A stretch of DNA of 53,125 nucleotides from Oscillospiraceae bacterium (GCA_015063795.1 SVTL01000015.1:1-53125), one strand, 5' to 3'; shown: positions 8,319-52,998, counted from the first letter of the stretch. Program-made: numbers and translations. Notes: a model not told the origin generated them from the letters alone.

Positions 8319-8402
8319 CAATCCCTTTCCACTTCGGTGGGCGAGGGATTGTTTTTTATAAAAAAGCTCTCTGCTCTTCTCAGCAGAGAGTTCTTTTTTT
8401 TA
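8319..8402. terminator. Two consecutive hairpin terminators; the second is bidirectional (A-run/hairpin/T-run)
   Basis: Hairpin caatccct...agggattg followed by TTTTTT. Then AAAAAA, hairpin gctctctgct...agcagagag, and TTTTTTTT. Confidence 0.7.
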
Positions 8403-8415
8403 TGCTTTTATGCCT

Positions 8416-8646
8416 TCAATCCTCCTCCAACAGCTTGGAGGGGGATATGTTTAATACCTGCGCAATCTTGAACAGCGTCTCCAGCGAAACACCGCGAACC
8501 GTTCCGGTGCCCTCGACTTGTCCTAAGAAATTCACGCTTTTATCGATCATTTCCGCGAAAGCTTCTTGTGTGTAGCCTGCCTTTTTTCGATAATAAGCGA
8601 TTTTCAAACCCAATGTAATATATTTATCTGCAAACTCTGTTTTCAT
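8416..8646 (-). CDS. XRE-family HTH transcriptional regulator (76 aa)
   Basis: Cro/C1-type HTH (GYTQEAFAEMIDKSVNFLGQVE). SD AGGGGG 8 nt upstream. Confidence 0.8.
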   Translation of the reverse strand: MKTEFADKYITLGLKIAYYRKKAGYTQEAFAEMIDKSVNFLGQVEGTGTVRGVSLETLFKIAQVLNISPSKLLEED

Positions 8647-8695
8647 TCTATCGCCCCCTGTATAGTTATAGTTTACAGGGAAACGAGAAAAATTA

Positions 8696-8727
8696 TTACT
8701 TTCCTAAAGTAAAAGATTATTTACTTT
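8696..8727. promoter_or_regulatory. Operator-like inverted repeat TTACTTTcctAAAGTAA plus a third TTACTTT half-site, upstream of the XRE-76 gene
   Basis: Perfect 7-bp inverted repeat with a 3-bp spacer at 8696-8712, repeated half-site at 8721-8727. TGTATAAT -10-like box at 8742-8749. Confidence 0.45.
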
Positions 8728-8788
8728 AAATCAATGATAATGTATAATAGGTGATGAATCATTTAACTGAGGTTAAAAAAAACAAAAA

Positions 8789-8841
8789 CCTGCTGTTTCA
8801 TCGGTCATCGCACGATTGAAGAAAAGAAAAAAACTCACTGT
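8789..8841 (+). repeat. Copy A of a ~53-nt direct repeat: frameshifted 5' coding fragment of a SLOG/DUF1273 gene (TCCFIGHRTIEEKKK...)
   Basis: About 95 % identical to copy B at 9365-9416. Homologous at protein level to the N-terminus of the intact gene at 9750. Confidence 0.75.
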
Positions 8842-8878
8842 GATTTTCCGAATACAGAGAGTTTTTCATGCGCATGAA

Positions 8879-9214
8879 TTATTTATTTCTTAAAACAGCC
8901 TTTGTGGTTTTGATAACCTCCGCAAGGGACTTGAGTTCTTCCGCAGAGCAATCCGAAAGAATATCGTCAATCAACTTCATGGAAACATGATTGCTCTTGA
9001 CTAAGCTGCCATATGCGATTTCGTCAAGAGTTACACCAAGCGCGTTTGCGATATTAACTAATGTGGGCAAGCTCAGTTTGGTTGCCGCACGTTCGATATG
9101 AGAAATGTTGGACGGCTCAATGCCGGATTCTTCTGCAAGCTTTGCTTGCGTCCATCCTTTTGCAGTACGAATCTCTTTGATTCTGCTGCCGATCGAAATA
9201 TAATCAATCCCCAT
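8879..9214 (-). CDS. XRE-family HTH regulator (112 aa) with a C-terminal helical extension
   Basis: Start MGIDYISIGSRIKEIRTAKGWTQAKLAEESG with SD GAGGTG 7 nt upstream. The track start MYIIL at 9283 has no SD. Confidence 0.75.
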   Translation of the reverse strand: MGIDYISIGSRIKEIRTAKGWTQAKLAEESGIEPSNISHIERAATKLSLPTLVNIANALGVTLDEIAYGSLVKSNHVSMKLIDDILSDCSAEELKSLAEVIKTTKAVLRNK

Positions 9215-9250
9215 GGAATTCACCTCATCATTTGCACTGAAGTTATTGTA

Positions 9251-9297
9251 TATCCGATTCGGATATGGTAAAATAATGTACATATCCGATTAGGATA
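9251..9297. promoter_or_regulatory. Two palindromic operator-like sites, TATCCGAtTCGGATA (9251-9265) and TATCCGAtTAGGATA (9283-9297), upstream of XRE-112
   Basis: Perfect and near-perfect 15-bp palindromes spaced 32 bp apart in the regulator's own promoter region. Confidence 0.5.
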
Positions 9298-9364
9298 CAG
9301 AATAATATTTATTTGTTTTTTCTTGTGCAAACGATACACGCGGTGAGTATTTTGACAAAATATC

Positions 9365-9437
9365 CCTGCTGTTTCATCGGTCACCGCACGATTGAAGGAA
9401 AGAAAAAACTCACTGTTCTTTCACAGCGAGCTTTCCA
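9365..9437 (+). repeat. Copy B of the SLOG 5' fragment repeat (PCCFIGHRTIEGKKKLTVLSQRA)
   Basis: About 95 % nt identity to copy A over 52 nt. Protein similarity to the intact SLOG N-terminus extends about 25 codons. It runs into the antisense of the next regulator gene. Confidence 0.75.
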
Positions 9438-9440
9438 ACC

Positions 9441-9641
9441 TTATTTGCGTGTCGGCTTTACATTGGAATCGGGTTTGATATCGCCCTCAATGGGGCCGTT
9501 GGCATCCTCAAAGGCTTTGATGTGCTGTCGGATCAAAACCAGCACCTGACTGTTCACACTTCTTCCCTCGTAATCGGCAACATAAGTAATTTTGTTCAGC
9601 ATTTCCTCTTCGATCCGAATCGATACGCTCTTGATAGCCAT
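9441..9641 (-). CDS. Ribbon-helix-helix (Arc/CopG-like) DNA-binding protein (66 aa)
   Basis: SVSIRIEEEMLNKI...YEGRSVNSQVLVLIRQHI fits the RHH beta-alpha-alpha pattern. SD GAGGTG 6 nt upstream. Confidence 0.65.
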   Translation of the reverse strand: MAIKSVSIRIEEEMLNKITYVADYEGRSVNSQVLVLIRQHIKAFEDANGPIEGDIKPDSNVKPTRK

Positions 9642-9749
9642 AAGATCACCTCAAAACAAATATATGATGTATTTATTTTAGATGCATTATGTGATATAAT
9701 GGCTAAAATAGATATATGGTATATCTATAAAATTTTAGGAGATGAACCA

Positions 9750-10232
9750 ATGACATCGAAGAACATCCTGCATACCTGCTGTTTCATCGGTCGTCGCAAG
9801 ATCGAGGAAAGCGAAGGATTGACGTTGAGCATAAGGCAACATATTGAAAGACTGATCACGGAAGAACGGGTGAACACCTTTTTGTTCGGAAGCCGATCGG
9901 ACTTTGACCGCCTGTGTCTGAAGACGGTGAGCGAACTGCAGAAACAATACCCGCACATCAAAAGAATCTACGTGCGGGCGGAATTCCCTTTCATTGACGA
10001 TACCTACAAAGCCTATCTGCTGCGATCCTACGACGAAACCTACTACCCCGAAGCGATCCTCGGTACCGGACGAGCGGTCTACATCAGGCGCAACCGCCAC
10101 ATGATCGACAACAGCCGCTTCTGCATCGTTTACCTCGACGAAGCCTCCGCCCCCCGCAACAGCGGCACCCGTCAGGCAGTCGCCTATGCCAAAGCGAAAG
10201 GCGCCATCACCGTCAACATCGCAGAAGCATAA
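9750..10232 (+). CDS. SLOG-family (YpsA/DUF1273-like) protein (160 aa)
   Basis: N-terminal CCFIGRR motif typical of DUF1273 proteins. SD tAGGAGatg 7 nt before the ATG at 9750. The track ORF start at 9522 is an upstream extension without an SD. Confidence 0.7.
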   Translation: MTSKNILHTCCFIGRRKIEESEGLTLSIRQHIERLITEERVNTFLFGSRSDFDRLCLKTVSELQKQYPHIKRIYVRAEFPFIDDTYKAYLLRSYDETYYPEAILGTGRAVYIRRNRHMIDNSRFCIVYLDEASAPRNSGTRQAVAYAKAKGAITVNIAEA

Positions 10233-10250
10233 ACGGCATCCTTTCGCTTG

Positions 10251-10298
10251 CAAAAAAACATCCGCCGAGGAATCGAAACTCCGCGGCGGTGTTTTTTC
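10251..10298. terminator. Bidirectional rho-independent terminator between the SLOG and GNAT genes
   Basis: AAAAAAA, then hairpin catccgccg...cggcggtg, then TTTTTT. Confidence 0.65.
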
Positions 10299-10301
10299 CG
10301 T

Positions 10302-10955
10302 TTATCGGACAACCGACGAATGGCTGTATATATAGAACTCTTCCTGGCTGGGCGCCCACGCCTTTTCCTTGGGCGGGAACGAAGCGTCAAACGTTTCCAC
10401 CGCGGCGGTGTCCTCACAGCAGTCGGCAGCCGTTGAGGGGATATACATCCACGGTCTGCCGTCCAGCGCGCCGGGGATCAGCTCGCAGACCAGAAGCGCA
10501 GTCGGGTAATGTCCCGCCGCCGCAAAGCTGACGTTCTTCTTTTTGCAGCTGACAAAGCCGCGGCTGACGTAATTGCCCGGGTTGCCGAAGTTGATGTTCA
10601 CATCATATCCCATCGCCCGCGCCGCATCAAAGGAATGCTCGATGAGCAGCTTGCCCAGCTTCTGCCGTTGATAGGCGGGGGCAACGCAGAGCGGACCGAA
10701 GGACACGATCTCCTTCCTTTTTCCGGCTTCATCTTCAAGCCACGCCTTTGTGTACATGATATTCCCAATGATCTTGCCATCTTTTTCGATCACAAACGCA
10801 AGCTCGGGAATAAAATCGGGATGAGAGCGCATGGTGTGGACAAAATAATGCTCGTCAGCACCCGGCTTGTAGACATTCCAGAACGCCTCTCTGGTCAGTT
10901 CCTCCACGGCTCGGTAGTCGGTTTCTTTTTCCAAACGGATCGTCAAATCGTTCAT
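10302..10955 (-). CDS. GNAT-family N-acetyltransferase (217 aa)
   Basis: Acetyl-CoA-binding motif QRQKLGKLLIEH. Start MNDLTIRLE with SD AGGAAAGGA. The upstream track extension is unsupported. Confidence 0.8.
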   Translation of the reverse strand: MNDLTIRLEKETDYRAVEELTREAFWNVYKPGADEHYFVHTMRSHPDFIPELAFVIEKDGKIIGNIMYTKAWLEDEAGKRKEIVSFGPLCVAPAYQRQKLGKLLIEHSFDAARAMGYDVNINFGNPGNYVSRGFVSCKKKNVSFAAAGHYPTALLVCELIPGALDGRPWMYIPSTAADCCEDTAAVETFDASFPPKEKAWAPSQEEFYIYSHSSVVR

Positions 10956-11342
10956 TTTTAAATCCTTTCCTATGTCGTTGACGGCGAGAATACGAGAGGA
11001 TTGCGGGATTGGTTTGGCAAACCTCTCGTTTACCGCACAATCTCCAAGGTGTTGTTCTTCTTCAAACAGCATTCTCCAAAAAAAGATAGTCAGGCTGAGC
11101 CTGCAGAGACAGTATAGCACATTGTCGCATTTTGTTCAAGAGAAAATGCACCTTGGATTGTTTTTTTCCTTGTCTTATGCTATAATAAAACAGACAGATC
11201 CCAAAGGATGAAAAAAGTTGCATGAGAGACATGCGGCGCTCATTCCCGCCGCGGTCTGAAACAGACAAAAACGATGCATGAACGGAGAAAAAACGGCATA
11301 GGCTGATACGGTTTCCCATCCAACATAAAGGAGCTTCTCTCC

Positions 11343-11984
11343 ATGGATTTTTTCATCAAGATCACTCTCCGCGCTTTTCTTGCCGTGATCATCGGCATCG
11401 TCATCGGCAGCGAACGGGCGCATCACGGGCGCGCCGCCGGCATGCGGACACACATTCTTGTGGCGCTGGGCGCTTCGCTGACCGCTATGATCAGTCTGTA
11501 TGCAAAAGAATATCTCGGCTATGAGGGAGACATCCTCCGTCTGTCGGCGCAGGTCATCTCGGGCGTCGGCTTTCTCGGCGCGGGCATGATCATCCTCAAA
11601 AACAACAGCATCATCACAGGGCTGACCACCGCCGCAGGTGTGTGGACCACGGGTGTGATCGGCATCGCCATCGGCTGCGGCTTTTACTTCGGTGCGCTGA
11701 TCATCACTTTTTTCTACATGGTCTCCATCATCCTCTTGGGCAGGCTGGAGCGCCCGAAAAAACAGCGCGACATCCTGTACATCGAGATCAACTCCATGTA
11801 CAAGGCCAACGAGACCGTGGAAAGGCTGAGGGCGACCGGGGCGGATTTTACCCACCACTTTCTCCCGCCGAAAAGCGGTTTTCCGGGGCATCTCGGTATC
11901 AGCCTGCTGATCGGAAGCCGTAAGACCTTTCCCGTCGAAAGTCTGAAGGAAGTTGAACACATCGTGTTTTACGAGGAAGAATAA
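11343..11984 (+). CDS. mgtC: MgtC/SapB-family membrane protein
   Basis: Five TM helices with a MgtC signature (GIVIGSERAHHGRAAGMRTHILV). SD aAAGGAGc. Confidence 0.85.
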   Translation: MDFFIKITLRAFLAVIIGIVIGSERAHHGRAAGMRTHILVALGASLTAMISLYAKEYLGYEGDILRLSAQVISGVGFLGAGMIILKNNSIITGLTTAAGVWTTGVIGIAIGCGFYFGALIITFFYMVSIILLGRLERPKKQRDILYIEINSMYKANETVERLRATGADFTHHFLPPKSGFPGHLGISLLIGSRKTFPVESLKEVEHIVFYEEE

Positions 11985-12002
11985 CAAGAGAGGAACGATA
12001 CT

Positions 12003-12803
12003 GTGAAAGCCATCGTACAAAATTTGAAGCTCTATCTCTTTGACATGGACGGCACGCTGTACATCGGCGAGAAGCTGTTCGATTTCACCGCAGACCTGCT
12101 GGCCGCCATCAAAGAGCGCGGCGCTTCGTATATGTTCATCACCAACAACTCGGCCAAGAGCGTCAGCGACTACGTGAAAAAGCTGAAAAGGCTGGGCATT
12201 GACGCCGACGAGAGCGAGTTCTTCACCTCCTCGCAGGCCACCGCTTACTATCTGAAGAAGCACCTCCCCGCCGCCCGTCTCTATGTCTGCGGTACCCGTT
12301 CGCTGAAGGAGGAGCTGGAAAGAGAGGGCTTCACTGTCACCGATCGGCTGGACGAGGTGGACTGCATCGTCATGGGCAACGACACCGAGCTGACCTTCCA
12401 AAAGCTTCACGATGTTTCCAAGCTTCTACTCACGCGCAAGGACATCCCCTACATCGCCACCAACCCCGATTACGTCTGCCCCACCGAATTCGGCTCGGTC
12501 CCCGACTGCGGCTCTTTTTGCGATATGCTGTACAACGTCGCCAAGCGCCGTCCGATCGTCATCGGGAAGCCAGAACCGCTGATGCCGATGCTGGCCATGG
12601 AACGCGCCGGCTGCACGCCTGAGCAGACCGCCGTCATCGGCGACCGCATCTACACCGACATCAAAAGCGGTCTCAACGCAGGAGCGGTCACCATGCTGGT
12701 CATGAGCGGTGAGACCACGCCCGAAATCCTAAGCCAATCGCCCGACAAGCCCGATCTGGTCCTTGCCGATGCCGGCGAGCTTCTTCCCTGTCTCAAGCCG
12801 TAA
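12003..12803 (+). CDS. HAD-IIA family hydrolase (NagD/UMP-phosphatase-like)
   Basis: DMDGTLY motif I, ITNNS motif II, GDRIYTDI motif IV. GTG start with SD aGAGAGGaa. Confidence 0.8.
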   Translation: MKAIVQNLKLYLFDMDGTLYIGEKLFDFTADLLAAIKERGASYMFITNNSAKSVSDYVKKLKRLGIDADESEFFTSSQATAYYLKKHLPAARLYVCGTRSLKEELEREGFTVTDRLDEVDCIVMGNDTELTFQKLHDVSKLLLTRKDIPYIATNPDYVCPTEFGSVPDCGSFCDMLYNVAKRRPIVIGKPEPLMPMLAMERAGCTPEQTAVIGDRIYTDIKSGLNAGAVTMLVMSGETTPEILSQSPDKPDLVLADAGELLPCLKP

Positions 12804-12812
12804 GCTCCCCAA

Positions 12813-12907
12813 AGGATGCGCCATCACGCGCGTCCTTTTTTCTTTCCCGCTCTCCCCCGCCCGTTCCCCCGCCAAGGGCGGATGCTCTGCATCCGCCTCT
12901 TCTTTTT
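12813..12907 (+). terminator. Two tandem rho-independent terminators after the HAD gene
   Basis: Hairpin aggaugcgc/gcgcguccu followed by TTTTTT (12813-12842). Hairpin ggcggatgc-tct-gcatccgcc followed by tcttcttttt (12876-12907). Confidence 0.7.
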
Positions 12908-13118
12908 GCCTTCGCATCACAAACAGCGGCCGCCGCCGGCAACAACGGCAAAAAGCGACGACGGACCGTTTTCCGAGCAAGCGAGCTTGCGTAAGGAAAC
13001 GGTTCGCCGCTTGGCAGGGGACGGGCGGGGCGGTTGTGCGTTTTTGTGGATAGTACACAAGAAAACAACCGCTGTTTTATTGGTATCGACAAATCGAAAA
13101 GCAATCACCTCTCCACTC

Positions 13119-13147
13119 TTGACAATCACTTGACCATGTGATACAAT
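13119..13147 (+). promoter_or_regulatory. Sigma-A-type promoter (TTGACA-17-TACAAT) for the DUF1836-like/NfeD/FloT operon
   Basis: Consensus -35 box, 17-nt spacer, TACAAT -10 box, about 40 nt before the start codon. Confidence 0.7.
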
Positions 13148-13184
13148 CATAGTACAGGTATTGATCCGCTAAGGAGGTGATGGG

Positions 13185-13739: not shown

Positions 13740-13759
13740 TATTTGAAAGGAACATTGCT

Positions 13760-16544: not shown

Positions 16545-16548
16545 GGCA

Positions 16549-25177: not shown

Positions 25178-26101
25178 TCAATCCATATTACAGACCAAGC
25201 TGTGCTCCACTTCCGATGTATATTTTCTTCCTAAAATATAGTTGATGGATTCCTCCGCTATTTTGTCTGTTGAATAGTCAACGCTTAACACCTTTACGAT
25301 GACATTCTTCAGCACAGAAAGGTTGTCAAATCCCGCGATCTGCACATTTTCGGGATACCCCAAATGCTTCAAAGCTTGAAGCGTATAGTAATCGGTCGCG
25401 CAAATAATCGCCCCGTCATTTGAAAGATCTTCAACATTTGTAACAATGCGATGGCTTTTCCCCAGTGTTCTCATTGCTTGAACAAAGCCGTTCAGCCTCA
25501 TACGCTGTGCGTTGATTGCATGCAGCGGTTTGTTCAAAACGGGAGCAAAATACTGAACATCCCCGGACGGTATCTTCTCGGCAATCGTTTTCGACAAATC
25601 GTACATTGCTTTCTCATCGTCTATCCCAACAAACGGCAGATCAAACAGTCTGTTTCCAATCAAAACGATTGGCTTTTTTAACGAGGTCAGATAATTTTTG
25701 TATTCCTCGTTATCACTGCCCACCGAAAACAAAACGATGCCATCCACGCCGATATAATCAAAATAGTCCAATGCCTTTTTTTCGTTTTTTTCATCTTTTT
25801 CCGAAAACTGAAAGATGATAGAATATCCGAGATTTCTTGCCGCCTTGACCAAACTCATCGCAAGCTTTGAAAAATATTCATTGTAAAGATCAAAAAGAAC
25901 AACACCGATCAGCATCGAGTTCGCTTGATCACCCATTTGAACATTCGGACGGTAATCGTATTCTTTTGCAACTTCAAGAATTCGTGCTTGAGTTTCGGGA
26001 TTGATCCCTTTCCTGTTATGAAGCGCACGGTCCACCGTTCCCTGAGAGACACCGCAAATTCTTGCAAGCTGTGTTGTTGTTATTTTGGAAAAACGTTTCA
26101 T
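25178..26101 (-). CDS. LacI-family transcriptional regulator
   Basis: N-terminal HTH (TTTQLARICGVSQGTVDRALHN) plus a periplasmic-binding-protein-like sugar domain. Overlaps the GH116 stop by 4 nt, suggesting an operon. Confidence 0.85.
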   Translation of the reverse strand: MKRFSKITTTQLARICGVSQGTVDRALHNRKGINPETQARILEVAKEYDYRPNVQMGDQANSMLIGVVLFDLYNEYFSKLAMSLVKAARNLGYSIIFQFSEKDEKNEKKALDYFDYIGVDGIVLFSVGSDNEEYKNYLTSLKKPIVLIGNRLFDLPFVGIDDEKAMYDLSKTIAEKIPSGDVQYFAPVLNKPLHAINAQRMRLNGFVQAMRTLGKSHRIVTNVEDLSNDGAIICATDYYTLQALKHLGYPENVQIAGFDNLSVLKNVIVKVLSVDYSTDKIAEESINYILGRKYTSEVEHSLVCNMD

Positions 26102-28605
26102 TGCAGCTTCAGCTCCTCATGTATTTCAACAGGATCGAAAACGATACAACCGTTAGCAACCTGAAAATCGATGTTTTCTCCGTCAACGGTAACATTTGTG
26201 ATCTGATCGGCGCCGGGTATGGCAATGGAATTCAATACCAAAGCCTTGCCAAAGACAGAAAGAATACACCGCTTCTCATAAAACGCAACACGCCCCCAAC
26301 TGTCACAAGCACTGAACAGATATGTTCCGCTGTTTTGAACAGGAGAAAAGCCGATATGCTTCTTCGTCATATCAAAGTGAAAGCCGCTGTATATGGGCAT
26401 CAAAGCATACGATGCCATCGAACGCGCATAATTGCTTCCGCATTCGATCTCATTCCAAGGATTTCGCTTTTCCCCGTCATACCGATCACGAACCGCTTTG
26501 ACGATGGTTTCGCCCTCGTCAACATAACCATGAGATATCATAAGCCCTGCAAGAGCATATTCAAAGCCTGTCATCGTTTCCTCACAGTAAGGGATCGGTA
26601 TCGCAGGGACCTTGGCACCTTCAGGATATGAGCAGATGATCGTTCCCGCCTCATCGTTCAGCGAGAAATTGCGCCACAGGTTTACAACGTTTCGCATGGA
26701 GGGCTTATAGTTGTTTTGATAAAGATTTTCAAGCGCGTTTTTTTTCTTTTCAAGATCAAAAACACCTTTTCGGCCAATCAGCACAGCATGCCAATCCGCC
26801 AGCATTTGGTCGATCATACAGCCGTCCGCAATCTGGTATTTGATCTCCTTTGCTTCTTCGTTCCAATATTTCTGAACGGCATCATAGCGTTCAAGAATGG
26901 ATTTGTCCGAAAGATCAATGAATTGATGGAAATATCTTCCATTGAAAAGATGCTCGTTCATAAATGCTTTGCCTTTTTCATAAAGCGTTGCGTAAAGGCT
27001 TGCCCGCTTTTCATCGCCAAGAGACCTTGCCATATCGGCACCGCAATCGAGCGCAAGCAGATAAAAGCCCTGAAGCCACGAGCTCGGTCCGAAAAGTTCC
27101 ATATCGAGCGTGTGATGCTGACGTCCCTCGAGAACGCCATCCATATCCGCATCCCACTTATCCGGATTTTCCTCTGACCACGCGTATTCAAGCATTTTGA
27201 AAATGCTCTCTGAATGCTTTTTCAGCCATTCGTTATCGCCTGAAAATTTCCATTCCCGATAGCACTTCAAAACCTCTCCCATCTGTCCGTCTACACAGGC
27301 GCGCTCCGTATACATCTCTCTTTTCAAGGGAAGATTGATGCGGAAGCTCGTAGCACCGCTGTCAAGAAGCGCATACTTCAGCGTATTTTCACGGATGGAA
27401 CGTTCAAGCCTTGGGAACAGATACGGCAGTGCATACGCATAATTCCAAACATGCTGACAGGTCCCGGAGCAGGAGCCGATGGTTTCACCGCAACCCTCCC
27501 ACCCCCAAAACGAGCCATCCTCAAGCCTGAGCACGGTAGGGGACTTGAGAACCGAAAGGTTTGCCGAGATCGCATCCTTGACCGATGCGGGAAGTGTGCA
27601 GGATTGTAAGGTTTTCGCAAACAACTCGGTTTTCCCGCCGAGCCAATCAAAATGTTTAAGCGCATACATGGCTGTCTCAAAGGAAGTTTGAAACTGTGTT
27701 GCGTAATAATTTCGCCACGTGGTACATTCCTCGTTACGCGGCTTCCAGTAGTTATAAGCAACCGGGACATTCCAAGCAATCACAAAACAAACCTTCGCTT
27801 TCGCGCCGGCAGGTATATTCACATACGAAACAACGGTGCCATGATCTCTCTTTGACGGCTCTGAATACCTTCTTTCCGGCATACGGTCTAAGCCGGAAAA
27901 CTGTTTCCAATAGGTGGTACAGCCGTCCATCCAGCCCCCTCTGTACCAATATTCCTGAGCAGAGCTGTCCTTATGATCGGTAAGAACACAAAGATCGAAA
28001 TATCCTTTTTCTTTATCATTCAAGTCGGCGCTTTTTAAGAAAATGCCGCTTACATCCCCCTCTTTTATGGCTTTGTTCAAAGAAGAGGCAGCAGGATTGC
28101 ATACCGTGCAGGCAAGCGAAAAGCGTATGGGTTCATCGGTTATGTTTTCTATTTCCCATTCAAAAAATGCCGACGGAAGACTTGAATGAAAGTCATCATG
28201 CGGTATCAGCGGATTAAAGGCACAAAGGCGTACAACGGCCGGGAAATCCTCGTCGGTGAACGAGAGCTTCGCTATCGGGAAACTGCCGTCAAAGGTCACG
28301 TTTTTGAAATGCGGAAGCCCGGCAAGCGAGTTTGCGCGCGGACCGTAACCAAATCCAACATGGCTACGGCTTAAGCACGGTATGCCCATGAGGTTTTCGA
28401 CAGTATCGCCGTGTAAAACTTTAGCAATATTCTTATTTGAATAGGAGGCCTTAATGGCGAAATGAGAGTATCCGTTTCGCGTGCATTTGCTTGGACGGTT
28501 AAAGATTTCCCAATCCTTCAACTCTCCGTTTCCTGCAAGACCAATGCAGCCTGTTCCAATGCCTCCGAGAGGAAAAGAAATGTTTTTTTTGCCTTGATAG
28601 ATCAT
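26098..28605 (-). CDS. Glycoside hydrolase family 116 (GBA2-type beta-glucosidase/glucosylceramidase-like), 835 aa
   Basis: N-terminal FPLGGIGTGCIGL motif and overall length typical of GH116. Start MIYQG with SD GGAGG. The 51-aa upstream track extension has no SD. Confidence 0.85.
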   Translation of the reverse strand: MIYQGKKNISFPLGGIGTGCIGLAGNGELKDWEIFNRPSKCTRNGYSHFAIKASYSNKNIAKVLHGDTVENLMGIPCLSRSHVGFGYGPRANSLAGLPHFKNVTFDGSFPIAKLSFTDEDFPAVVRLCAFNPLIPHDDFHSSLPSAFFEWEIENITDEPIRFSLACTVCNPAASSLNKAIKEGDVSGIFLKSADLNDKEKGYFDLCVLTDHKDSSAQEYWYRGGWMDGCTTYWKQFSGLDRMPERRYSEPSKRDHGTVVSYVNIPAGAKAKVCFVIAWNVPVAYNYWKPRNEECTTWRNYYATQFQTSFETAMYALKHFDWLGGKTELFAKTLQSCTLPASVKDAISANLSVLKSPTVLRLEDGSFWGWEGCGETIGSCSGTCQHVWNYAYALPYLFPRLERSIRENTLKYALLDSGATSFRINLPLKREMYTERACVDGQMGEVLKCYREWKFSGDNEWLKKHSESIFKMLEYAWSEENPDKWDADMDGVLEGRQHHTLDMELFGPSSWLQGFYLLALDCGADMARSLGDEKRASLYATLYEKGKAFMNEHLFNGRYFHQFIDLSDKSILERYDAVQKYWNEEAKEIKYQIADGCMIDQMLADWHAVLIGRKGVFDLEKKKNALENLYQNNYKPSMRNVVNLWRNFSLNDEAGTIICSYPEGAKVPAIPIPYCEETMTGFEYALAGLMISHGYVDEGETIVKAVRDRYDGEKRNPWNEIECGSNYARSMASYALMPIYSGFHFDMTKKHIGFSPVQNSGTYLFSACDSWGRVAFYEKRCILSVFGKALVLNSIAIPGADQITNVTVDGENIDFQVANGCIVFDPVEIHEELKLQ

Positions 28606-28687: not shown

Positions 28688-28825
28688 AAAAACCATCGAT
28701 TGAACAAACCATGTATCGTTGCGCATATAATCCACTGTCTTCGGATGGATTGTATCATAAAAGCTCAATGTTTACACATAAAAATGAAGCACACGCTGCT
28801 CTCGCAGGAAGCGAAACGATTTTTT

Positions 28826-28943
28826 GCTCTTCTCTTTTCTCAAAAAACGACAATTTGAGAGAAGAGAGAAAATCGAAAAAGTGAAAAGAGAAAAGAACAA
28901 AAAGAAACGACAATCTTCAATTGAAAATTGTCGTTTCTTTTGG
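28826..28943. repeat. Structured direct repeat, copy 1: CT-tract, aacgacaattt, GA-tract, then a perfect 11-bp hairpin gaaacgacaat/attgtcgtttc and a T-run
   Basis: About 85 % identical to copy 2 at 29753-29889. The hairpin at 28904-28937 plus TTTT acts as the terminator of the upstream minus-strand mini-operon. Confidence 0.8.
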
Positions 28944-29006
28944 CTGTGGGCTACGAAAAAGACATTTTCGGCATTTTTGCGTATGACTTCGAACTCTCAC
29001 CGTTCA

Positions 29007-29336
29007 TTAGTTAGTATTTTTGCTGTTGTTAATATGGTTTCCATTTTTATCCCTATTTATAGGAACGGCGGTAAGGGAAAATTGCATGCAATGGCACGGA
29101 CAAGGAATTTCTATTTTATATTTATCTTTTGCACCTCTGTATGTAAAATCGCCGCCACATCTAACCACCTCACACCAAGTATAAATTTCCGCCATAGCTC
29201 GAGGGCAGAAACTTTGAGGCGTTTCGTATTCAAAATGAAAAACGTCTCCCTTTTCTAATCCAAGTCTGCAATTCTTTGCCTCTCCTTCAATTACTTCTAC
29301 ATCAAAAGCCCAATCTTCAACAATCCATTTGTTCAT
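29007..29336 (-). CDS. Small Cys-rich protein, TIGR04076-like (109 aa)
   Basis: Conserved-looking FCPRAMAEIY...GGDF...IPCPCHC Cys pattern. Overlaps the upstream gene by 4 nt (ATGA). The family assignment is from memory only. Confidence 0.5.
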   Translation of the reverse strand: MNKWIVEDWAFDVEVIEGEAKNCRLGLEKGDVFHFEYETPQSFCPRAMAEIYTWCEVVRCGGDFTYRGAKDKYKIEIPCPCHCMQFSLTAVPINRDKNGNHINNSKNTN

Positions 29337-29683
29337 TTGCCGTTCTCCTTTGCAGTATTCAAGGATGCAACAAGCATTCTCTTGATTTCTTCAGCAAGCG
29401 AGAGTAAGCTATCAAAATTATAATTCATAAGCTTTGTGTTTTTAAGAAGTTTCAACCAATAAATACTTTCTCCTGTTTCCTTAAGTGAAATATGAAGCTT
29501 TGATATAAAATCCGCTTTGCTGTTACCGTAAACTGCTTCGTTTATGTTTGCACCTATGCTTGTTGCAGAGCGAAGTAATTGTTTGGCGATAGTTGTATCT
29601 TTTTTTGATTTGGAAAACTCTTCATAAAACAATACGATTTATGTTGCAAAATCGAGAGATTTATCGAGCAAAGGACTGTTCAT
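29333..29683 (-). pseudogene. Four-helix-bundle (23S rRNA IVS / Avd-like) protein gene with an in-frame TAA at codon 15
   Basis: ATG at 29683 with SD GAGGTG. It reads MNSPLLDKSLDFAT-TAA-IVLFYEEFSKSKKDTTIAKQLLRSATSIGANINEA in one continuous frame, with the stop at 29639-29641. This matches the family consensus ...DKSFDFALRIIKLY...LSKQLLRSGTSIGANI. Confidence 0.6.
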
Positions 29684-29752: not shown

Positions 29753-29889
29753 CCTTTTCTCTTCTCTTTTCTCTCTTATCTTTTCTCTGGAAACGACAAT
29801 TTGAGAGAAGAGAGAAAAGTGAAAAGATAAAAGTGAAGAGACCAAAAAGAAACGACAATCTTCTGTCGAAAATTGTCGTTTCTTTTTGG
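29753..29889. repeat. Structured direct repeat, copy 2, immediately 3' of tRNA-Ser; its hairpin and T-run is the tRNA terminator
   Basis: CT-tract, aacgacaattt, GA-tract, then hairpin gaaacgacaat-cttctgtcgaaa-attgtcgtttc at 29849-29882, flanked by an A-run and a T-run. Adjoins the tRNA 3' end. Confidence 0.8.
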
Positions 29890-29977
29890 CGGAGAAGGAG
29901 AGATTCGAACTCTCGCGCCGCTTTCGCGACCTACGCCCTTAGCAGGGGCGCCTCTTCACCAACTTGAGTACTTCTCC
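29887..29977 (-). tRNA. tRNA-Ser (anticodon GCT), class II, CCA encoded
   Basis: Minus strand reads GGAGAAG-TA-CTC-AAGTTGGTGAA-GAG-G-CGCCC-CTGCTAA-GGGCG-[19-nt variable arm]-GAGAG-TTCGAAT-CTCTC-CTTCTCC-G-CCA. Perfect 7-bp acceptor stem. 91 nt. Confidence 0.9.
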
Positions 29978-48347: not shown

Positions 48348-50077
48348 AGATCACCATCGACGGCATGAGCCTTGAGGTTCCTGCCGACATTACAATACTC
48401 GAAGCCGCCAGAACGGCCGGCATCAACATCCCCACGCTCTGCTACTTAAAGGACATCAACGAGATCGCCGCCTGCCGCATCTGTGTGGTGGAGGTGGAGG
48501 GCGTTGACCGCCTGGTTCCCGCCTGCAACACCAAGGTGGAGGAGGGCATGGTGGTTCTGACCAACACCAACCGCGTGAAGGAGAACCGCAAGATCAATCT
48601 TCAGCTCATCCTCTCTCAGCACAACAGCAACTGTCCCACCTGCGTGAGAAACGGCAACTGCACCCTGCAGCGACTGGCTGCGGAAAGCAACCTGTCCAGC
48701 GATCTTTACAGCAAGAAGATCTCGTCCAAGCCCTGGTCCAAGGACAACCATCTCATCCGCGACGAAAGCAAGTGCATCAAGTGCATGCGCTGCATCCAGA
48801 TCTGCGACAAGGTGCAGAAAATGAACGTCTGGGATGTGATCAACACCGGCAGCCGCACCACCGTGGGCGTCAGCGGCAACCGCAAGTTCAACGAGACCGA
48901 CTGTACCCTCTGCGGTCAGTGCATCACCCACTGCCCTGTGGGCGCGCTCCGCGTCAACGACGACACGTCCAAGGTCATCGCCGCTCTGACCGATCCCGAG
49001 ATTACCACCGTTGTGCAGGTGGCTCCCGCCGTCCGCGCCGCATGGGGCGAGCATCTCGGGCTGACCAAGGAGCAGGCCACCACCGGACGCATGGTCGCCG
49101 CCCTCCGCCGTCTCGGCTTTGACTACATCTTCGACACCAACTTCGCCGCCGACCTGACCGTCATGGAGGAAGGCAGCGAATTCATCGAGCGCTTCACGCA
49201 CAAGAGCGAATACGCCTGGCCCATGCTCACCTCCTGCTGCCCCGGCTGGGTACGCTTCGTGAAGGGCAATTTCCCGCAATATACCGACAACCTGTCCACC
49301 GCCAAGTCGCCTCAGCAGATGTTCGGCGCGGCCGCCAAGAGCTACTTCGCCGAAAAGGTCGGCATCGATCCCAAGAAGATCTTTGTCGTTTCCATCATGC
49401 CCTGCGTGGCCAAGAAGAGCGAATGCAAGCTGCCCGCTCACGTCAACGACAACGGCGATCCCGATGTGGATGTGGTTCTGACCACCCGCGAGTTCCAGCG
49501 TATGCTTCTCGCCGACAAGGCCGATCTGGGCTCGCTTCCCGAGTCGGAATTCGATTCGCCTCTCGGTCAGAGCTCGGGTGCCGGTCTGATCTTCGGCGCC
49601 ACCGGCGGCGTGATGATCGCCGCTCTCCGCAGTGCCTACTATCTGGTCACCGGCAAGAATCCCGATGCCGACGCCTTCTCGTCCATCGGAGGCAAGATCG
49701 GCTGGAGCGAGGCCGTGTTTACCATTCCCGGCGCGGGCGAGGTGAAGGTAGCCGTAGTCAGCGGTCTGAGCAACGCTCGCGCGCTGATGGAAGCCATTGA
49801 AACAGGCAAGGTCGCCTATGACTTTGTGGAGGTCATGGCTTGTCCCGGCGGATGTGCCGGCGGCGGCGGTCAGCCCATTCACGACGGCTTTGAGATGGCC
49901 GCACAGCGCGGCGATATCCTTTGGGAGCTGGACAAGAAGGCTGCCAACCGCTTCTCGCATGAGAACCCCGACATCCAGGCTCTCTACCGCGACTATTTCG
50001 AAAAGCCCCTGAGTGAAAAGGCTCACCACCTGCTCCACACCGACCACCACACATGGGAGATGCCCAAGAAGAAATAA
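48341..50077 (+). CDS. hydA: [FeFe] hydrogenase catalytic subunit (N-terminal [2Fe-2S] and [4Fe-4S] ferredoxin-like domains plus the H-cluster domain)
   Basis: H-cluster motifs TSCCPGWV, MPCVAKKSE, EVMACPGGCAGGGGQP. Start/stop overlap ATGGTAA. SD GGGAGGGA. Confidence 0.9.
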   Translation: MVKITIDGMSLEVPADITILEAARTAGINIPTLCYLKDINEIAACRICVVEVEGVDRLVPACNTKVEEGMVVLTNTNRVKENRKINLQLILSQHNSNCPTCVRNGNCTLQRLAAESNLSSDLYSKKISSKPWSKDNHLIRDESKCIKCMRCIQICDKVQKMNVWDVINTGSRTTVGVSGNRKFNETDCTLCGQCITHCPVGALRVNDDTSKVIAALTDPEITTVVQVAPAVRAAWGEHLGLTKEQATTGRMVAALRRLGFDYIFDTNFAADLTVMEEGSEFIERFTHKSEYAWPMLTSCCPGWVRFVKGNFPQYTDNLSTAKSPQQMFGAAAKSYFAEKVGIDPKKIFVVSIMPCVAKKSECKLPAHVNDNGDPDVDVVLTTREFQRMLLADKADLGSLPESEFDSPLGQSSGAGLIFGATGGVMIAALRSAYYLVTGKNPDADAFSSIGGKIGWSEAVFTIPGAGEVKVAVVSGLSNARALMEAIETGKVAYDFVEVMACPGGCAGGGGQPIHDGFEMAAQRGDILWELDKKAANRFSHENPDIQALYRDYFEKPLSEKAHHLLHTDHHTWEMPKKK

Positions 50078-50097
50078 GGTCGGTCAAAATCGCATAA

Positions 50098-50146
50098 AAA
50101 CACAAGAGGTGCCGCCCGTTTGATGGGTTGCACCTCTTTTTTTGTA
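50098..50146. terminator. Bidirectional terminator after hydA
   Basis: AAAAA, hairpin agaggtgc...gcacctct, then TTTTTTT. Confidence 0.75.
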
Positions 50147-50157
50147 TTCAAAATGCC

Positions 50158-51117
50158 TTAGCCCGCATAGCCTCTCGGCGGCAGGGTGATGGCAAGCTCG
50201 GTCTCGGTCTTGTCCGCGCCCGTCAGATACGTGATCTTCAGCTTGCCCTTCGCCTCAAACTCACCGCTTGTGACAAAATCGGCAACGTTCTCGGAGGCAT
50301 TTTCAAGAATATATTCCTTATAATAATCATCCTTGTCAAAAATATCCCGCACCACGATCAGGTGCTGTCCGTCTCTCTGCTCGGCATAGACCACAAGGTC
50401 GTATTTGGCCGTCAGCACATACGAAAAGGGCTCGGACACACGCCCCTCCGACAGTTCATAATAGGTAGCAGTTCTGGTAGATGGGCCTGCTTCCTGAAAG
50501 GCGATGCCCGTCACATGGGTGCTGACACTTTCTTCCATCGGCATTTTCGTCAAATTCTCTTCGCAAGCCAAAACCTGCCCATCATAATCGACAACAATAT
50601 AGTAATTGAGATTTTCTTCCGGGGAACTGTAAATTCTGTCAGCATAAACACTACTCGGTTCATATCGAGTAACATCTTTGATCGCTCCGTAAAACAATCC
50701 ATAGTGGCCGCCGTCGTTCATATCAAAAGTTCCGTACACTTCCACATACTTACCGTTATGCCGTTCTGCCTCTTTTTTGGAAATCACAGTCTCATCAAGA
50801 TCGATCCAAATACGTTGATCCCCGCCGTATTTCAAATCTTCTTCGCTCAATGCAATGCAGTTTCCTTCAAACTCGATGTTCCCAACACCAATCACACGAA
50901 CCTCTTTCCCATGGTATTTTTCAGGCGTGGCAAGTAGCTGCACCATCGAAACAAAACCATACTGAGAACGTGAGTAGCATTCCTCTTTTTCAACTTCCTC
51001 CTCTGCCTCAAACGAAAGCAATCCGTTTCGGTAAAACACACCCAGAACAAACGCCGCAAGAAGAATCAGAAGAACAAACTGCAGAATGCATAGAATCCAA
51101 AGTGCTTTTTTGTTCAT
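50158..51117 (-). CDS. Membrane-anchored hypothetical protein (319 aa)
   Basis: N-terminal signal-anchor helix (MNKKALWILCILQFVLLILLAAFVLGVF). No recognised domain. Confidence 0.6.
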   Translation of the reverse strand: MNKKALWILCILQFVLLILLAAFVLGVFYRNGLLSFEAEEEVEKEECYSRSQYGFVSMVQLLATPEKYHGKEVRVIGVGNIEFEGNCIALSEEDLKYGGDQRIWIDLDETVISKKEAERHNGKYVEVYGTFDMNDGGHYGLFYGAIKDVTRYEPSSVYADRIYSSPEENLNYYIVVDYDGQVLACEENLTKMPMEESVSTHVTGIAFQEAGPSTRTATYYELSEGRVSEPFSYVLTAKYDLVVYAEQRDGQHLIVVRDIFDKDDYYKEYILENASENVADFVTSGEFEAKGKLKITYLTGADKTETELAITLPPRGYAG

Positions 51118-51214
51118 TTTGCCACCGCCTTTTTGTTTGATAATCTATTATATCACATTTCAAACAAAAAGTAAAGCCGGCGCAGTATAATTCCTCTGAA
51201 AAATCAAATATTAA

Positions 51215-51279
51215 CTTCACATTTTTTGATTCAAAAGGAGATTATATATAAGAAAGCCACAGGCATTGTCAGACGCATC
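51215..51279 (+). repeat. Direct repeat copy 1: SD plus 5' end of a SpoVT/AbrB-type gene, with the start codon mutated (tatataTAAGaaagcc)
   Basis: Motif ttttgattcaaaaggagatt...aaagccacaggcattgtcagacgcatc, about 90 % identical to copy 2. It would encode MKATGIVRRI, but ATG has become AAG. Confidence 0.75.
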
Positions 51280-51384
51280 CATAAATGAGGTGTAATAACA
51301 CCAAGACCCGAAAAGCCTCATAGGCACTACATTTTTACAGATTTTCTCAAAATCAATTTGCACAAATACAAAATCTATCCATAG

Positions 51385-51418
51385 CAAAAGCGAGGTATAT
51401 GTTATCTCGCTTTTGTTT
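51385..51418. terminator. Bidirectional hairpin terminator downstream of the Gfo/Idh/MocA gene
   Basis: Hairpin aaagcgag-gtatatgttatc-tcgcttt followed by T-rich sequence on both strands. Confidence 0.6.
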
Positions 51419-52634
51419 ATAAATCGCAAACATCTTTTCTTGGACGCTTATACCATTTACCGTTCGTAAAGTCAGGCATCGCCTGAGGGGCACCCCCCTG
51501 CTGAATTGAGATTTCTGAAAGCACCGAAACTGCCTGCCATGTGGCAGCATCATAAACATCAACAGGCATTTCTGTTTTATTTATCAAAGCATCGGTAAAC
51601 GCTTTATAACAAAACCAATCCATACCGCCATGGCCCGCTTTCATTTCTTCATCTGTTATATTTTTCCATATGCTTGGCAGATATTCTTCCTCGTATTTTT
51701 TAGCATTATTCAGATTGTCTATATAATAATCATACATATCCCAGTAAGTATGTTTTTCACCGTCAAGAAAAACCGAATTCGTATCCTGCATAAACATACC
51801 TTTTGTTCCTCTAACTGTAAAATCACGCGTATATGAACGAGGAAGTGTGGTGTCAAGTCGGAGCATAATCGTTTCGCCGTTTGCACAAGTCAAAATCGTG
51901 ATGATAACATCCCCCTGCTTAAAATCCGCATTTTTCATTTCCTCGGTGGCGTCGTCACGCTCTTTTATATAGTCTTTAAGGCCGACAGCCTTTGTTGCAA
52001 ATGAAGATACGGTAAGAATTCGGTTGCCTCTGTTAATATCAAGAAGCTTAGCAATAGGGCCCAAATCATGTGTAGGATAGTTATCACAGCAACGGTTTAA
52101 ATAGTTATCAAAACGGTAATGACGATTTACATGCCCATAAGCAATTTCATCTCTTAAATCATGAGAATAAGAGCCGGAGCAATGGACAACGGTGCCGAAT
52201 TTCCCTTTTCTTGCCATAGCGGTTGCCAAGAGCTCAGCCTTACCCCAACAACAATTTTCCACAAACATGTACGGCGTGCCGGTTTCCTCTTGAACTCTCA
52301 CTAACTCATAACAGTTTTCCAAAGAATATTCGCATCCAACTTCACTTGCAACAGCAATTCCTTTTTTCATTGCATAAACTGCAATTTCAGTGTGTGTGCT
52401 CCAATCACTAAACACAAATACCGCATCAACGATATCCACCGCAAGAGCTTCTTTATAATCGGTAAAACCCTTCGCATCTTGTCCAGCTTCTCTTACCAAT
52501 TCGATTGCTCTTTGTATTCTATCTTCATATAAATCGCAAACAGCAACAATGTTAAGGCTACTTATTTTCAACAGCACTTTTTTGAGCAAATCGTATCCAC
52601 GATTCCCCAGTCCGACAACACATGCATTTATCAT
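51417..52634 (-). CDS. Gfo/Idh/MocA-family NAD-binding oxidoreductase (possibly a GH109-like NAD-dependent glycosidase)
   Basis: N-terminal Rossmann GLGNRG motif and a GHGGMDW motif in the C-terminal half. No signal peptide. Confidence 0.75.
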   Translation of the reverse strand: MINACVVGLGNRGYDLLKKVLLKISSLNIVAVCDLYEDRIQRAIELVREAGQDAKGFTDYKEALAVDIVDAVFVFSDWSTHTEIAVYAMKKGIAVASEVGCEYSLENCYELVRVQEETGTPYMFVENCCWGKAELLATAMARKGKFGTVVHCSGSYSHDLRDEIAYGHVNRHYRFDNYLNRCCDNYPTHDLGPIAKLLDINRGNRILTVSSFATKAVGLKDYIKERDDATEEMKNADFKQGDVIITILTCANGETIMLRLDTTLPRSYTRDFTVRGTKGMFMQDTNSVFLDGEKHTYWDMYDYYIDNLNNAKKYEEEYLPSIWKNITDEEMKAGHGGMDWFCYKAFTDALINKTEMPVDVYDAATWQAVSVLSEISIQQGGAPQAMPDFTNGKWYKRPRKDVCDL

Positions 52635-52867
52635 ACTCTTTTCTCCTTTAAGCCAACAATATATGTTATGTTCATTTTAATAAAATCGCTTTCATTGAAA
52701 AGCCCATATAAAATTAAATCAACATCGGTATCGAGCCAAATCAATCCCGTTATGATAACACCAATAGACTCAATGACAAATATCCACTTTGCCCAATTTT
52801 TAATTTTACCGCCTATGGTTTCGTATAAATGATCAAATATAAAGAAAACATCCGATTGTTTCTTCAT
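52631..52867 (-). CDS. Small membrane protein (78 aa), hypothetical
   Basis: One or two TM helices. Its 3' end overlaps the downstream gene by 4 nt (ATGA). Confidence 0.4.
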   Translation of the reverse strand: MKKQSDVFFIFDHLYETIGGKIKNWAKWIFVIESIGVIITGLIWLDTDVDLILYGLFNESDFIKMNITYIVGLKEKRV

Positions 52868-52932
52868 TATAGCACAAACACATTAAAAAGTAAACACACT
52901 AGTATAAATCTCCCCGTTTTACAAATACTATC

Positions 52933-52998
52933 ATCACAAATTTTGATTCAAAAGGAGATTTTATATATATGAAAGCCACAGGCATTGTCAGACGCATC
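52933..52998 (+). repeat. Direct repeat copy 2: intact SD and ATG plus the first 11 codons (MKATGIVRRID) of a SpoVT/AbrB-type gene, then unrelated sequence
   Basis: aaaGGAGattttatatatATGaaagccacaggcattgtcagacgcatcgac. The 11-residue match to the SpoVT/AbrB N-terminus ends abruptly. An embedded TTGTCA-N18-TATAAT-like motif follows. Confidence 0.75.

Follow-up and report, generated by a model that had tools for sequence, protein, structure and literature searches.

Repeat-bounded cassettes at three loci of an Oscillospiraceae contig and a conjugative element located in spoVT

A 53,125-nt contig from an Oscillospiraceae bacterium (GCA_015063795.1, SVTL01000015.1), hereafter called the window, carries AT-rich gene cassettes bounded by direct repeats at three places: upstream of a SLOG (DUF1273/YpsA) gene (locus 1), downstream of a tRNA-Ser gene (locus 2), and near the right end of the contig, where copies of the 5′ end of the sporulation gene spoVT are found (locus 3). 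We favor, with moderate confidence, the view that these loci are independent stacks of flanking DNA at conserved anchors, such that no new dedicated insertion system is needed. The stacks would reflect recurrent acquisition of foreign DNA at three recombination hotspots, with each cassette being the natural flank of its anchor (the spoVT start, the SLOG start, or the tRNA-Ser end) from another genome, placed beside the resident copy of that anchor. Known processes, namely site-specific integration with accretion and sequential displacement by anchored recombination, suffice to explain the loci themselves. The most interesting by-product of the analysis is a conjugative element that targets spoVT.

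A first-pass annotation, made from the sequence alone, had described repeat-bounded cassettes at all three loci and had proposed for them a single trans-acting, possibly undescribed insertion mechanism. The repeat sets are present at the coordinates it gave, a pattern search returned no chance match for any repeat in 100 shuffles, and a whole-window scan found no further direct repeats of ≥38 nt and ≥80% identity beyond the three loci. The cassettes were also said to have their own promoters and terminators, and consensus elements of both kinds are indeed present at the cassette edges. The GC content of the cassettes is 0.30-0.46 in a window whose overall value is 0.536 and whose core genes include hprK, proA/proB, nth, mreB, and genes for a PBP and an Fe-hydrogenase, among others. 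The cassettes are foreign or strain-variable. A GAGGTG Shine-Dalgarno sequence, offered as a cassette mark, precedes two of seven cassette genes, as well as the upstream ATG of a broken IVP gene at locus 2, versus 1 of 40 core genes; this excess is a weak and purely compositional mark of foreign origin. A Pfam search of the window proteins found no recombinase, transposase, or integrase. No family was matched when the whole window was scanned with Rfam at gathering thresholds, the tRNA family included, and PADLOC gave generic HTH matches for the regulators but none for the SLOG, Arc, IVP, or 109-aa proteins discussed below. Contigs near-identical to the window were found in JGI and ENA metagenomes. 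Comparison contigs from metagenomes and metagenome-assembled genomes (MAGs) are denoted by L-numbers (L012, L043, L052, and so on).

A conjugative element in spoVT codon 11 and the adjoining stack

Locus 3 contains two copies of a repeated sequence (51147-51279 and 52866-52998) whose identity is 72% at the left, 87% in the middle, and 97% at the right. When the genome collection was scanned with the 27-mer AAAGCCACAGGCATTGTCAGACGCATC, two MAGs were matched (L031 and L032), and in both of these the 27-mer starts an intact 180-aa gene (MKATGIVRRIDDLGRVVIPKEIRR…). An initial scan of metagenome contigs with this spoVT 27-mer returned nothing. Over its entire length, the 180-aa protein matches the SpoVT equivalog TIGR02851 (E = 1e-66; 224 bits, just missing the 235.9-bit cutoff), and thus what had been called an abrB fragment is the spoVT promoter plus the first 10-11 codons of spoVT. 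The second copy, unit 2 (52866..53001, plus strand), comprises the spoVT promoter, a Shine-Dalgarno sequence, an ATG at 52969, and codons 1-11, and it aligns over its full length with the region before intact spoVT genes in L134 (76% over 136 nt) and L031 (81%). On its opposite strand, the ~130-nt unit also carries a strong sigma-70-like promoter (TTTACT-17-TGnTATAAT), which faces a divergent neighbor gene in L134. In the window this promoter lies on the minus strand at 52894-52866 in unit 2 and at 51175-51147 in unit 1, where it drives a 319-aa gene. From these alignments, the repeated unit appears to be the natural spoVT upstream region.

Copy 2 ends …CGCATCGAC, followed directly by TCTTCTGTTATAATAGG, and a 41-aa open reading frame (ORF) that crosses this junction recurs behind six different upstream gene sets (MatE, dockerin/radical-SAM, ECF CbiQ, and others). 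When the six hosts are aligned, identity is 99-100% over the 125 nt that follow the junction. It drops to 70-88% in the 33 coding nt that precede the junction, where differences fall at synonymous sites, and to 47-77% in the next 100 nt upstream. Host polymorphisms reach within 3 nt of the junction. This pattern is the mark of one mobile element that has entered spoVT at the same nucleotide in different hosts. Unit 2 forms the host half, and positions 53002..53125 (plus strand), which are 99-100% identical in the six host backgrounds and run off the contig end, form the left end of the integrated element. Together they are almost certainly the attL of an element that is site-specific for spoVT codon 11. 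The corresponding uninterrupted site, attB, would contain …CGCATCGACGACCTCGG….

Carriers of the element include L012, L038, L039, and L042 in addition to the window; the copies are nearly identical and come from the same metagenome series. Past the junction, the element encodes ParB, a 203-aa protein, a DUF6017/HTH_36 protein, a DUF3801 protein, and a VirD4/TraG-type coupling protein. The latter is represented in L042, where ~3.4 kb of the element is visible, by a T4SS-DNA_transf/TraG-type match (E = 1.9e-19). Given that ParB, DUF6017, and DUF3801 proteins are encoded along with a type IV secretion system coupling protein, we regard the element as conjugative. The earlier claim that these cassettes lack a recombinase is accurate for the window itself, but the window is one whole contig that stops 124 nt inside the conjugative element, and the apparent lack follows from the assembly breaking at this element. 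Scans of viral contigs for ParB, the SLOG repeat, and the left end of the element returned nothing.

Some indications regarding the enzyme come from other spoVT loci. Among 80 such loci in a metagenome scan, nearly all have one full-length copy and none has a second spoVT 5′ copy, and four contigs (L064, L068, L084, and L089) match spoVT only from residue 11, 16, 21, or 24 on. An attR-type junction at spoVT codon 11, lacking spoVT 5′ sequence, is present in L064, which is not proven to hold the same element. L089 (3709-10474) carries a different mobilizable element in spoVT at ~codon 31, with genes for a DUF5906 primase-like protein, a Mob_Pre relaxase, a RhuM-like protein, and a large serine recombinase (Resolvase, Recombinase, and Zn-ribbon domains) whose ORF continues in frame into the C-terminal part of SpoVT. 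Because the L089 recombinase runs into spoVT and the L064 attR-type join falls at codon 11, the element in the window probably relies on a large serine recombinase, with the gene for this enzyme at the far end. In L068, rplN is joined in frame to spoVT codon 16, which looks like an assembly artifact.

SpoVT is a forespore, sigma-G-dependent regulator, and for this reason excision of the element from spoVT could not be germline-neutral. If insertion inactivates SpoVT, the element may impair or switch off proper spore maturation in its hosts. No paper on a conjugative element targeting spoVT was found in the literature searched, and the element seems to be undescribed.

The older half of locus 3 begins with copy 1, or unit 1 (51147..51279, plus strand), which retains the spoVT promoter, the Shine-Dalgarno sequence, and codons 2-10, but has AAG at 51250 instead of ATG. 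It ends …CGCATC, followed by CATAAATGAGG. Both spoVT copies in the window are truncated, neither is part of an intact resident gene, and both starts are dead. The first-pass annotation had proposed a mechanism that regenerates the interrupted end, and at spoVT no such regeneration is seen.

Next to copy 1 lies X2 (51280..51416, plus strand), a putative decayed left-end scar of a spoVT-targeting element that is fused to the terminator of a GH109-like gene (51386-51415). A direct likeness between X2 and the left end of the element is not significant, as the observed score was reached by 320/1000 and 568/2000 shuffles. We therefore accepted homology only via an intermediate scar in L043. X2 aligns with the L043 scar with a score of 39 (shuffles 10.6 ± 1.9, 0/2000 reaching it), and the L043 scar aligns in register with the left end of the element with a score of 19 (shuffles 8.8 ± 1.45, again 0/2000). 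Because X2 is homologous to a scar that in turn matches the element, it is quite likely that copy 1 and X2 are the decayed remains of an earlier attL from this element family. The intermediate comes from an unrelated MAG (L043/L145, GCA_045539375.1), in which three spoVT promoter/5′ units bound sugar-gene cassettes (L043 2840-7340, equivalent to L145 6840-11340), one carrying AraC plus a GH109 homolog and one carrying GH4. The complete unit in this array has an ATG and ten codons followed by ~85 nt that match the element left end in register, and neither a spoVT body nor the element was found within 10 kb of the array.

The cargo between X2 and unit 2 consists of a GH109-like Gfo/Idh/MocA oxidoreductase gene (51417..52634, minus strand; Pfam Glyco_hydro_109_C, E = 1.6e-54) and a 78-aa membrane ORF (52631..52867, minus strand). 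Homologs of the former, 85-86% identical, reside in AraC-regulated sugar loci elsewhere. A HipBA or other toxin-antitoxin reading of the locus was ruled out, since the 405-aa protein is GH109-like. Each cassette of the locus 3 type consists of a terminator, one or more genes, and a promoter unit in a single orientation. This is the layout of a natural spoVT left flank, because the unit is the spoVT upstream region with a promoter for the divergent neighbor. The GH109 and 78-aa genes, together with unit 2, would be the spoVT upstream flank of a former host that was brought in with the element. Most economically, the stack arose by integration, decay, and re-integration, or by composite transfer, as in the accretion of cis-mobilizable elements (CIMEs) with integrative and conjugative elements (ICEs), which involves cis-mobilization and gene capture. 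Such accretion with gene capture has been described for streptococcal elements (PMC5704250, section 2.3). Consistent with a CIME, the segment 51280-52998 is free of integration and transfer genes and holds only the GH109-like gene and the 78-aa ORF. Its boundaries are an attL-type scar on the left and the host half of another attL on the right, rather than a canonical attR or attI.

Regulator modules stacked at the SLOG start

SLOG (DUF1273) genes normally adjoin a divergent small regulator. In the window, three minus-strand regulator genes (XRE76, XRE111, and Arc), each with its own promoter region and terminator, are present upstream of SLOG. A 44-nt segment of the SLOG 5′ end occurs three times: at 8789-8832, at 9365-9408 (95% identical to the first), and at 9775-9818 within the intact gene (80%). 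This repeat encodes the conserved SLOG N-terminal motif TCCF[FI]GHR, and hundreds of full-length homologs exist. The two upstream copies belong to remnants that align with SLOG gene starts up to ~codon 26-32. We consider it likely, from comparison with the related loci below, that the stack formed by sequential displacement.

From left to right, the XRE76 module (8358..8765, minus strand) contains a bidirectional terminator (8365-8392), an HTH_3 gene (8416..8646; Pfam HTH_3, E = 6e-11), and a divergent promoter region. SLOG 5′ remnant 1 (8720..8866, plus strand) has a promoter (TTTACT-17-TATAAT, 8720-8748), a start at 8751/8754, the CCFIGHR-encoding repeat, and a hairpin (8833-8861) that was identified by eye and that, with a 13-nt loop, was not called by the terminator scan. 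It is followed by the XRE111 module (8879..9305, minus strand), whose HTH_3 gene (8879..9214; Pfam HTH_3, E = 1.4e-16) has a GAGGTG Shine-Dalgarno sequence. Upstream of this gene, at 9243-9305, are two copies of a palindrome (ATATCCGATTCGGATAT / ATATCCGATTAGGATAC), which are probably XRE111 operator sites. SLOG 5′ remnant 2 (9343..9436, plus strand) begins with an in-frame GTG at 9343 and ends with a hairpin that is the terminator of the Arc gene (9436-9403, minus strand). The last module (9441..10232, plus strand) pairs an Arc/RHH gene (9441..9641, minus strand; Pfam E = 5.6e-6) through a divergent promoter with the intact DUF1273/YpsA SLOG gene (9750..10232, plus strand; YpsA 25.6 bits, under the 27.7-bit cutoff).

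Two comparison contigs are informative here. L052 has an intact SLOG gene with a divergent regulator whose identity to XRE76 is 88%, and the DNA homology between the two contigs (window 8358-8765, L052 3578-3984) stops 17 nt before the L052 SLOG ATG. A downstream acetyltransferase is 86% identical between the two, which marks the loci as orthologous. The two SLOG proteins share just 57% identity, and the window lacks three of the L052 genes. Given the 88% and 86% values on either side versus 57% for SLOG, along with the loss of three genes, the SLOG body has been replaced. The second contig, L055, represents another species and another chromosomal site. Its Arc protein (82% aa identity) is likewise paired with SLOG, and the Arc-SLOG module shows 69.6% DNA identity over window positions 9441-10052. 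A duplicated SLOG start comprising the ATG and 12 codons (32/37 nt identical) lies 51 nt past the Arc stop codon, such that the breakpoint is at codon 12 versus ~codon 26-32 in the window. The architecture that had been put forward as a recurrent theme therefore also occurs outside this genome, both here and in the spoVT-start array of L043. A natural XRE111-SLOG pair was not found in other genomes.

These comparisons suggest how the stack could have been built. Incoming xenologous regulator-promoter-SLOG modules, that of XRE111 first and that of Arc next, would have joined within the resident SLOG 5′ end without clean replacement, using a homologous anchor on one side and an illegitimate joint on the other. 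Every such event would have displaced the older regulator and ~30 SLOG codons leftward, with the resident XRE76 gene and its ~30 codons being retained. Once a cassette is flanked by repeats, ordinary homologous recombination could move it to other alleles. Anchored illegitimate recombination is suggested because the breakpoint is variable, the gene body is replaced, and neighbors are lost. Displacement arrays attributed to homology-facilitated illegitimate recombination (HFIR) have precedents in type VI secretion system (T6SS) effector-immunity arrays and Rhs loci (PMC5361080). HFIR of imported DNA had been the fallback proposal of the first-pass annotation. It is the best account of locus 1 and a possible one for locus 2.

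Several additional observations concern this region. GC content climbs after ~10020, inside the SLOG gene, and a hybrid junction within the gene was considered on this basis, but the shift is merely suggestive. Many DUF1273/SLOG homologs (P0242-P0360) are located on very short contigs (0.6-2.5 kb), which suggests that SLOG genes often reside in assembly-breaking regions that are strain-variable or repeated. One contig, L057, is a palindromic Arc-SLOG arrangement and by its look is likely an assembly artifact. To the left of the XRE76 module, window positions 7942-8308 hold three short ORFs that by eye resemble fragments of a metallophosphoesterase/5′-nucleotidase and of a zinc alcohol dehydrogenase C-terminus, in which case this interval would be a junkyard of gene pieces. 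Pfam gave no matches for these ORFs, as they are too short.

A strain-variable islet downstream of tRNA-Ser

The region downstream of the tRNA-Ser(GCT) gene (29887..29977, minus strand; ARAGORN) is a strain-variable islet with a duplicated terminator. The gene hprK lies on the other side of this tRNA anchor. On the minus strand the order is tRNA-Ser, terminator copy T(B), a promoter, an IVP gene, a 109-aa gene, a boundary segment, terminator copy T(A), GH116, and LacI, all within a low-GC stretch that extends from ~25.0 to 30.0 kb. The repeated sequence is a ~120-nt two-hairpin segment, with its tRNA-proximal copy T(B) at 29767-29886 and its distal copy T(A) at 28821-28941 (both minus strand; 83-88% identity). 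Between them are the islet promoter (TTGAAT-17-TATAAT, 29732-29704), a four-helix-bundle/23S-rRNA-IVP gene (29333..29683; PF05635, E = 5e-21; TIGR02436), a 109-aa gene of the TIGR04076 family (29007..29336; NCBIfam), and a 65-nt boundary segment (28939-29003) that is 81% conserved in L046, all on the minus strand. Beyond T(A) is a low-GC LacI plus GH116 block (25178..28605, minus strand; GC 0.42-0.47; Pfam) that is not present in L046 or L051.

Variability is evident from three contigs. L046 is from the same species (HprK 100% identical) and is 100% identical to the window as far as 29520, beyond which the 109-aa gene, T(A), GH116/LacI, and the greater part of the IVP gene are absent and an ABC-transporter block is found instead. 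In L024 (1-190), from another sample, a different IVP allele is joined at ~29370 to an almost identical 109-aa gene. In the sister species represented by L051 (HprK 81%), an unrelated simple terminator follows tRNA-Ser and none of the islet genes is present. Strains free of the cassette, with GH116 directly after tRNA-Ser, were sought among the contigs with an exact GH116 match, but all 11 have the islet (0/11).

The terminator duplication could be due to anchored illegitimate recombination, as proposed for SLOG, or could be the trace of a decayed tRNA-targeting element. The repeat shares only GCCA with the tRNA (GCCA/AAAAG at both copies) and no integrase is present, and so the locus does not have the hallmarks of a tRNA island. 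A remnant of the tRNA-Ser 3′ end was sought in the boundary segment, but the alignment is unconvincing and a T-arm-like 11-mer is not collinear. The 120-nt terminator was also considered as a dispersed miniature inverted-repeat transposable element (MITE) or repetitive extragenic palindrome (REP) family, and this was dismissed, as the window has only two copies and, among the comparison contigs, matches were confined to those of this species. A diversity-generating retroelement came under consideration because the IVP protein is Avd-like, and it was rejected, as no reverse transcriptase is encoded in the window and the copy differences are not adenine-specific.

The IVP gene has an in-frame TAA (29639-29641), 14 codons past the GAGGTG-preceded ATG, and because L046 has the same stop, the gene is probably a pseudogene or has an internal TTG start. 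Most metagenome contigs break near window 29630-29650, which suggests strain heterogeneity there. In the island that L046 carries after tRNA-Ser, inverted repeats of 87 nt, which are 93% complementary and separated by 252 nt, and a tandem-like repeat of 64 nt (L046 9407-9964) resemble a MITE or insertion sequence remnant. The LacI-family gene (25178-26101) encodes 307 aa in most contigs. In L021, L140, and L143 it is called at 252 aa and there is a gap after GH116, and this call is probably a frameshift variant. The first 99 nt of L028 are inverted, which looks like an assembly artifact.

Competing explanations, implications, and known systems

The three anchors have no sequence in common, and their junctions behave differently, being nucleotide-exact in six hosts at spoVT and variable in two lineages at SLOG. 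These facts, together with the presence past the contig end of an element that accounts for locus 3, speak against the single trans-acting system of the first-pass annotation, which would insert cassettes at translation starts and terminators and regenerate the interrupted end. The common architecture of the three loci, its recurrence in other genomes, and the mild over-representation of GAGGTG in cassette genes would fit such a system. However, neither the repeat families nor the junctions share sequence, the cassettes are without common end motifs, SLOG junctions vary in position, spoVT shows no regeneration of the interrupted end, and the stacks are fixed in the sampled population wherever coverage exists (at locus 2, among GH116-bearing contigs). 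Locus 3 also has a conventional explanation. We thus judge a new system to be extremely unlikely. The notion that the repeats are ordinary local tandem duplications that later diverged, which the same annotation had raised against its own proposal, is hardly credible. The repeats are direct and close together, as this notion predicts, but the repetition is confined to the boundaries. The genes inside are unrelated (XRE111 versus Arc), divergence between copies is 5-28%, as it would be for alleles of different genomes, and close relatives of each unit exist in other species.

A more serious competitor, although still an unlikely one, is that all three stacks are att-site accretions of site-specific elements that target spoVT codon 11, the 5′ end of SLOG, and the 3′ end of tRNA-Ser. 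The small cassettes would then be decayed or captured CIME-like pieces that recombinases from other parts of the genome could move in cis or trans. Site-specific integration is demonstrated for spoVT, and tandem CIME-element structures are common (PMC5704250). Moreover, integrases classically target tRNA genes and the tRNA 3′ end directly adjoins the locus 2 repeat, both SLOG remnants have one breakpoint, and the cassette at every locus resembles the natural flank of its anchor from another genome. Yet there is no element or recombinase beside loci 1 and 2 within the 53 kb, the locus 2 repeat includes at most 4 nt of the tRNA and the putative tRNA remnant is unconvincing, and the SLOG breakpoint differs in L055. 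Furthermore, the SLOG body and three neighbors were replaced, which simple integration and excision do not do. It is also conceivable, but very unlikely in our estimation, that the spoVT-targeting family actively builds integron-like arrays in which each cycle of integration and excision stacks an attL and a captured gene under the control of the bidirectional spoVT promoter. The occurrence of two- and three-unit arrays in two unrelated genomes, the uniform terminator-cargo-promoter layout in one orientation, and scars derived from the left end of the element are all compatible with this scheme. Against it, there are only two examples, the L043 array is not near the element or spoVT, no spoVT locus outside this species has a second spoVT 5′ copy, and passive accretion with decay yields the same pictures. 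Similarly, it is quite unlikely that this family, across many Oscillospiraceae and Ruminococcaceae species, assembles integron-like arrays besides disrupting sporulation, adding with every transfer a spoVT promoter/5′ unit and a captured neighbor gene driven by the divergent promoter of that unit, such that the arrays in the two unrelated genomes would be footprints of this activity.

Independent flank stacks remain our preferred explanation, but several points weigh against it. At locus 3, neither the recombinase nor the distal part of the element is in view, because all contigs break within ~3.4 kb of the left end. A donor in which GH109 adjoins spoVT was not found, the two closest homolog contexts being AraC sugar loci, and tandem attL-type junctions are not produced by canonical serine-integrase chemistry, which is a difficulty for the origin of the first stack. 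At locus 1, the two SLOG remnants are 95% identical, stop at the same point, and carry a homologous hairpin despite being followed by different genes. This shared end hints at a preferred site or gene conversion versus random illegitimate joints, and it could also mean homologous import from a donor that was already stacked. At locus 2, the data fit HFIR and a decayed integrative element alike, and thus we offer any mechanism there only tentatively. Finally, same-species contigs covering locus 1 or 3 all carry the same stack, and mobility was never directly observed.

The analysis removes a candidate new recombination system and illustrates that the recombinase accounting for a puzzling structure may be concealed by the end of a contig. 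In its place, spoVT codon 11 emerges as an insertion hotspot of a conjugative element, which has reached at least six bacterial backgrounds within the same metagenome set almost without change. Likewise, DUF1273/SLOG regulator-plus-promoter modules appear to be swapped and stacked in more than one species, and this stacking may inform the control of the poorly understood DUF1273/SLOG genes.

The stacks bear some resemblance to systems that are already known. As in integron arrays, one- or two-gene cassettes are arranged in one orientation with a recurring separator and with the newest cassette beside the anchor. Unlike integrons, the stacks lack intI, attI, and attC-type imperfect palindromes, promoters are carried by the cassettes themselves, and the separator consists of part of the target gene or terminator. 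Locus 2 is like tRNA-linked islets in having strain-variable, low-GC genes and direct repeats directly downstream of a tRNA gene, but its repeat is a terminator region rather than a tRNA 3′ end, it has no integrase, and it spans only 0.8 kb. The SLOG locus is comparable to the T6SS effector-immunity arrays of Vibrio cholerae and to Rhs C-terminal displacement (PMC5361080), in which anchored modules are inserted by proposed HFIR and the displaced remnant and its partner are kept. In those arrays, however, the 5′ body is the anchor and 3′ ends accumulate downstream, whereas at SLOG it is 5′ ends with regulators and promoters that accumulate upstream. Thus, the SLOG stack is a 5′-end mirror of the 3′-end toxin displacement arrays.

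Locus 3 finds its closest parallel in the CIME-ICE structures of ICESt1 and ICESt3 in Streptococcus thermophilus (PMC5704250). In both cases a conjugative element lies in tandem with a recombinase-less piece bounded by copies of a target-gene end, and the explanation is alike (integration, decay, and re-integration, or composite transfer). The tyrosine integrase of ICESt1 and ICESt3 restores the target end to give attL, attI, and attR, whereas at locus 3 spoVT is split at codon 11 and both junctions are of the attL type. Insertion at a fixed point within a coding region is likewise a feature of the sporulation-gene intervening elements, such as skin in sigK, SPbeta in spsM, gin in gerE, and yin in yabG (PMC5025042, PMC4191935, PMC5595907, PMC10747680), and related intervening elements use large serine recombinases. 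These known elements are prophage-like or minimal, reside in mother-cell genes, and are excised during development, whereas the element described here is conjugative and resides in spoVT.

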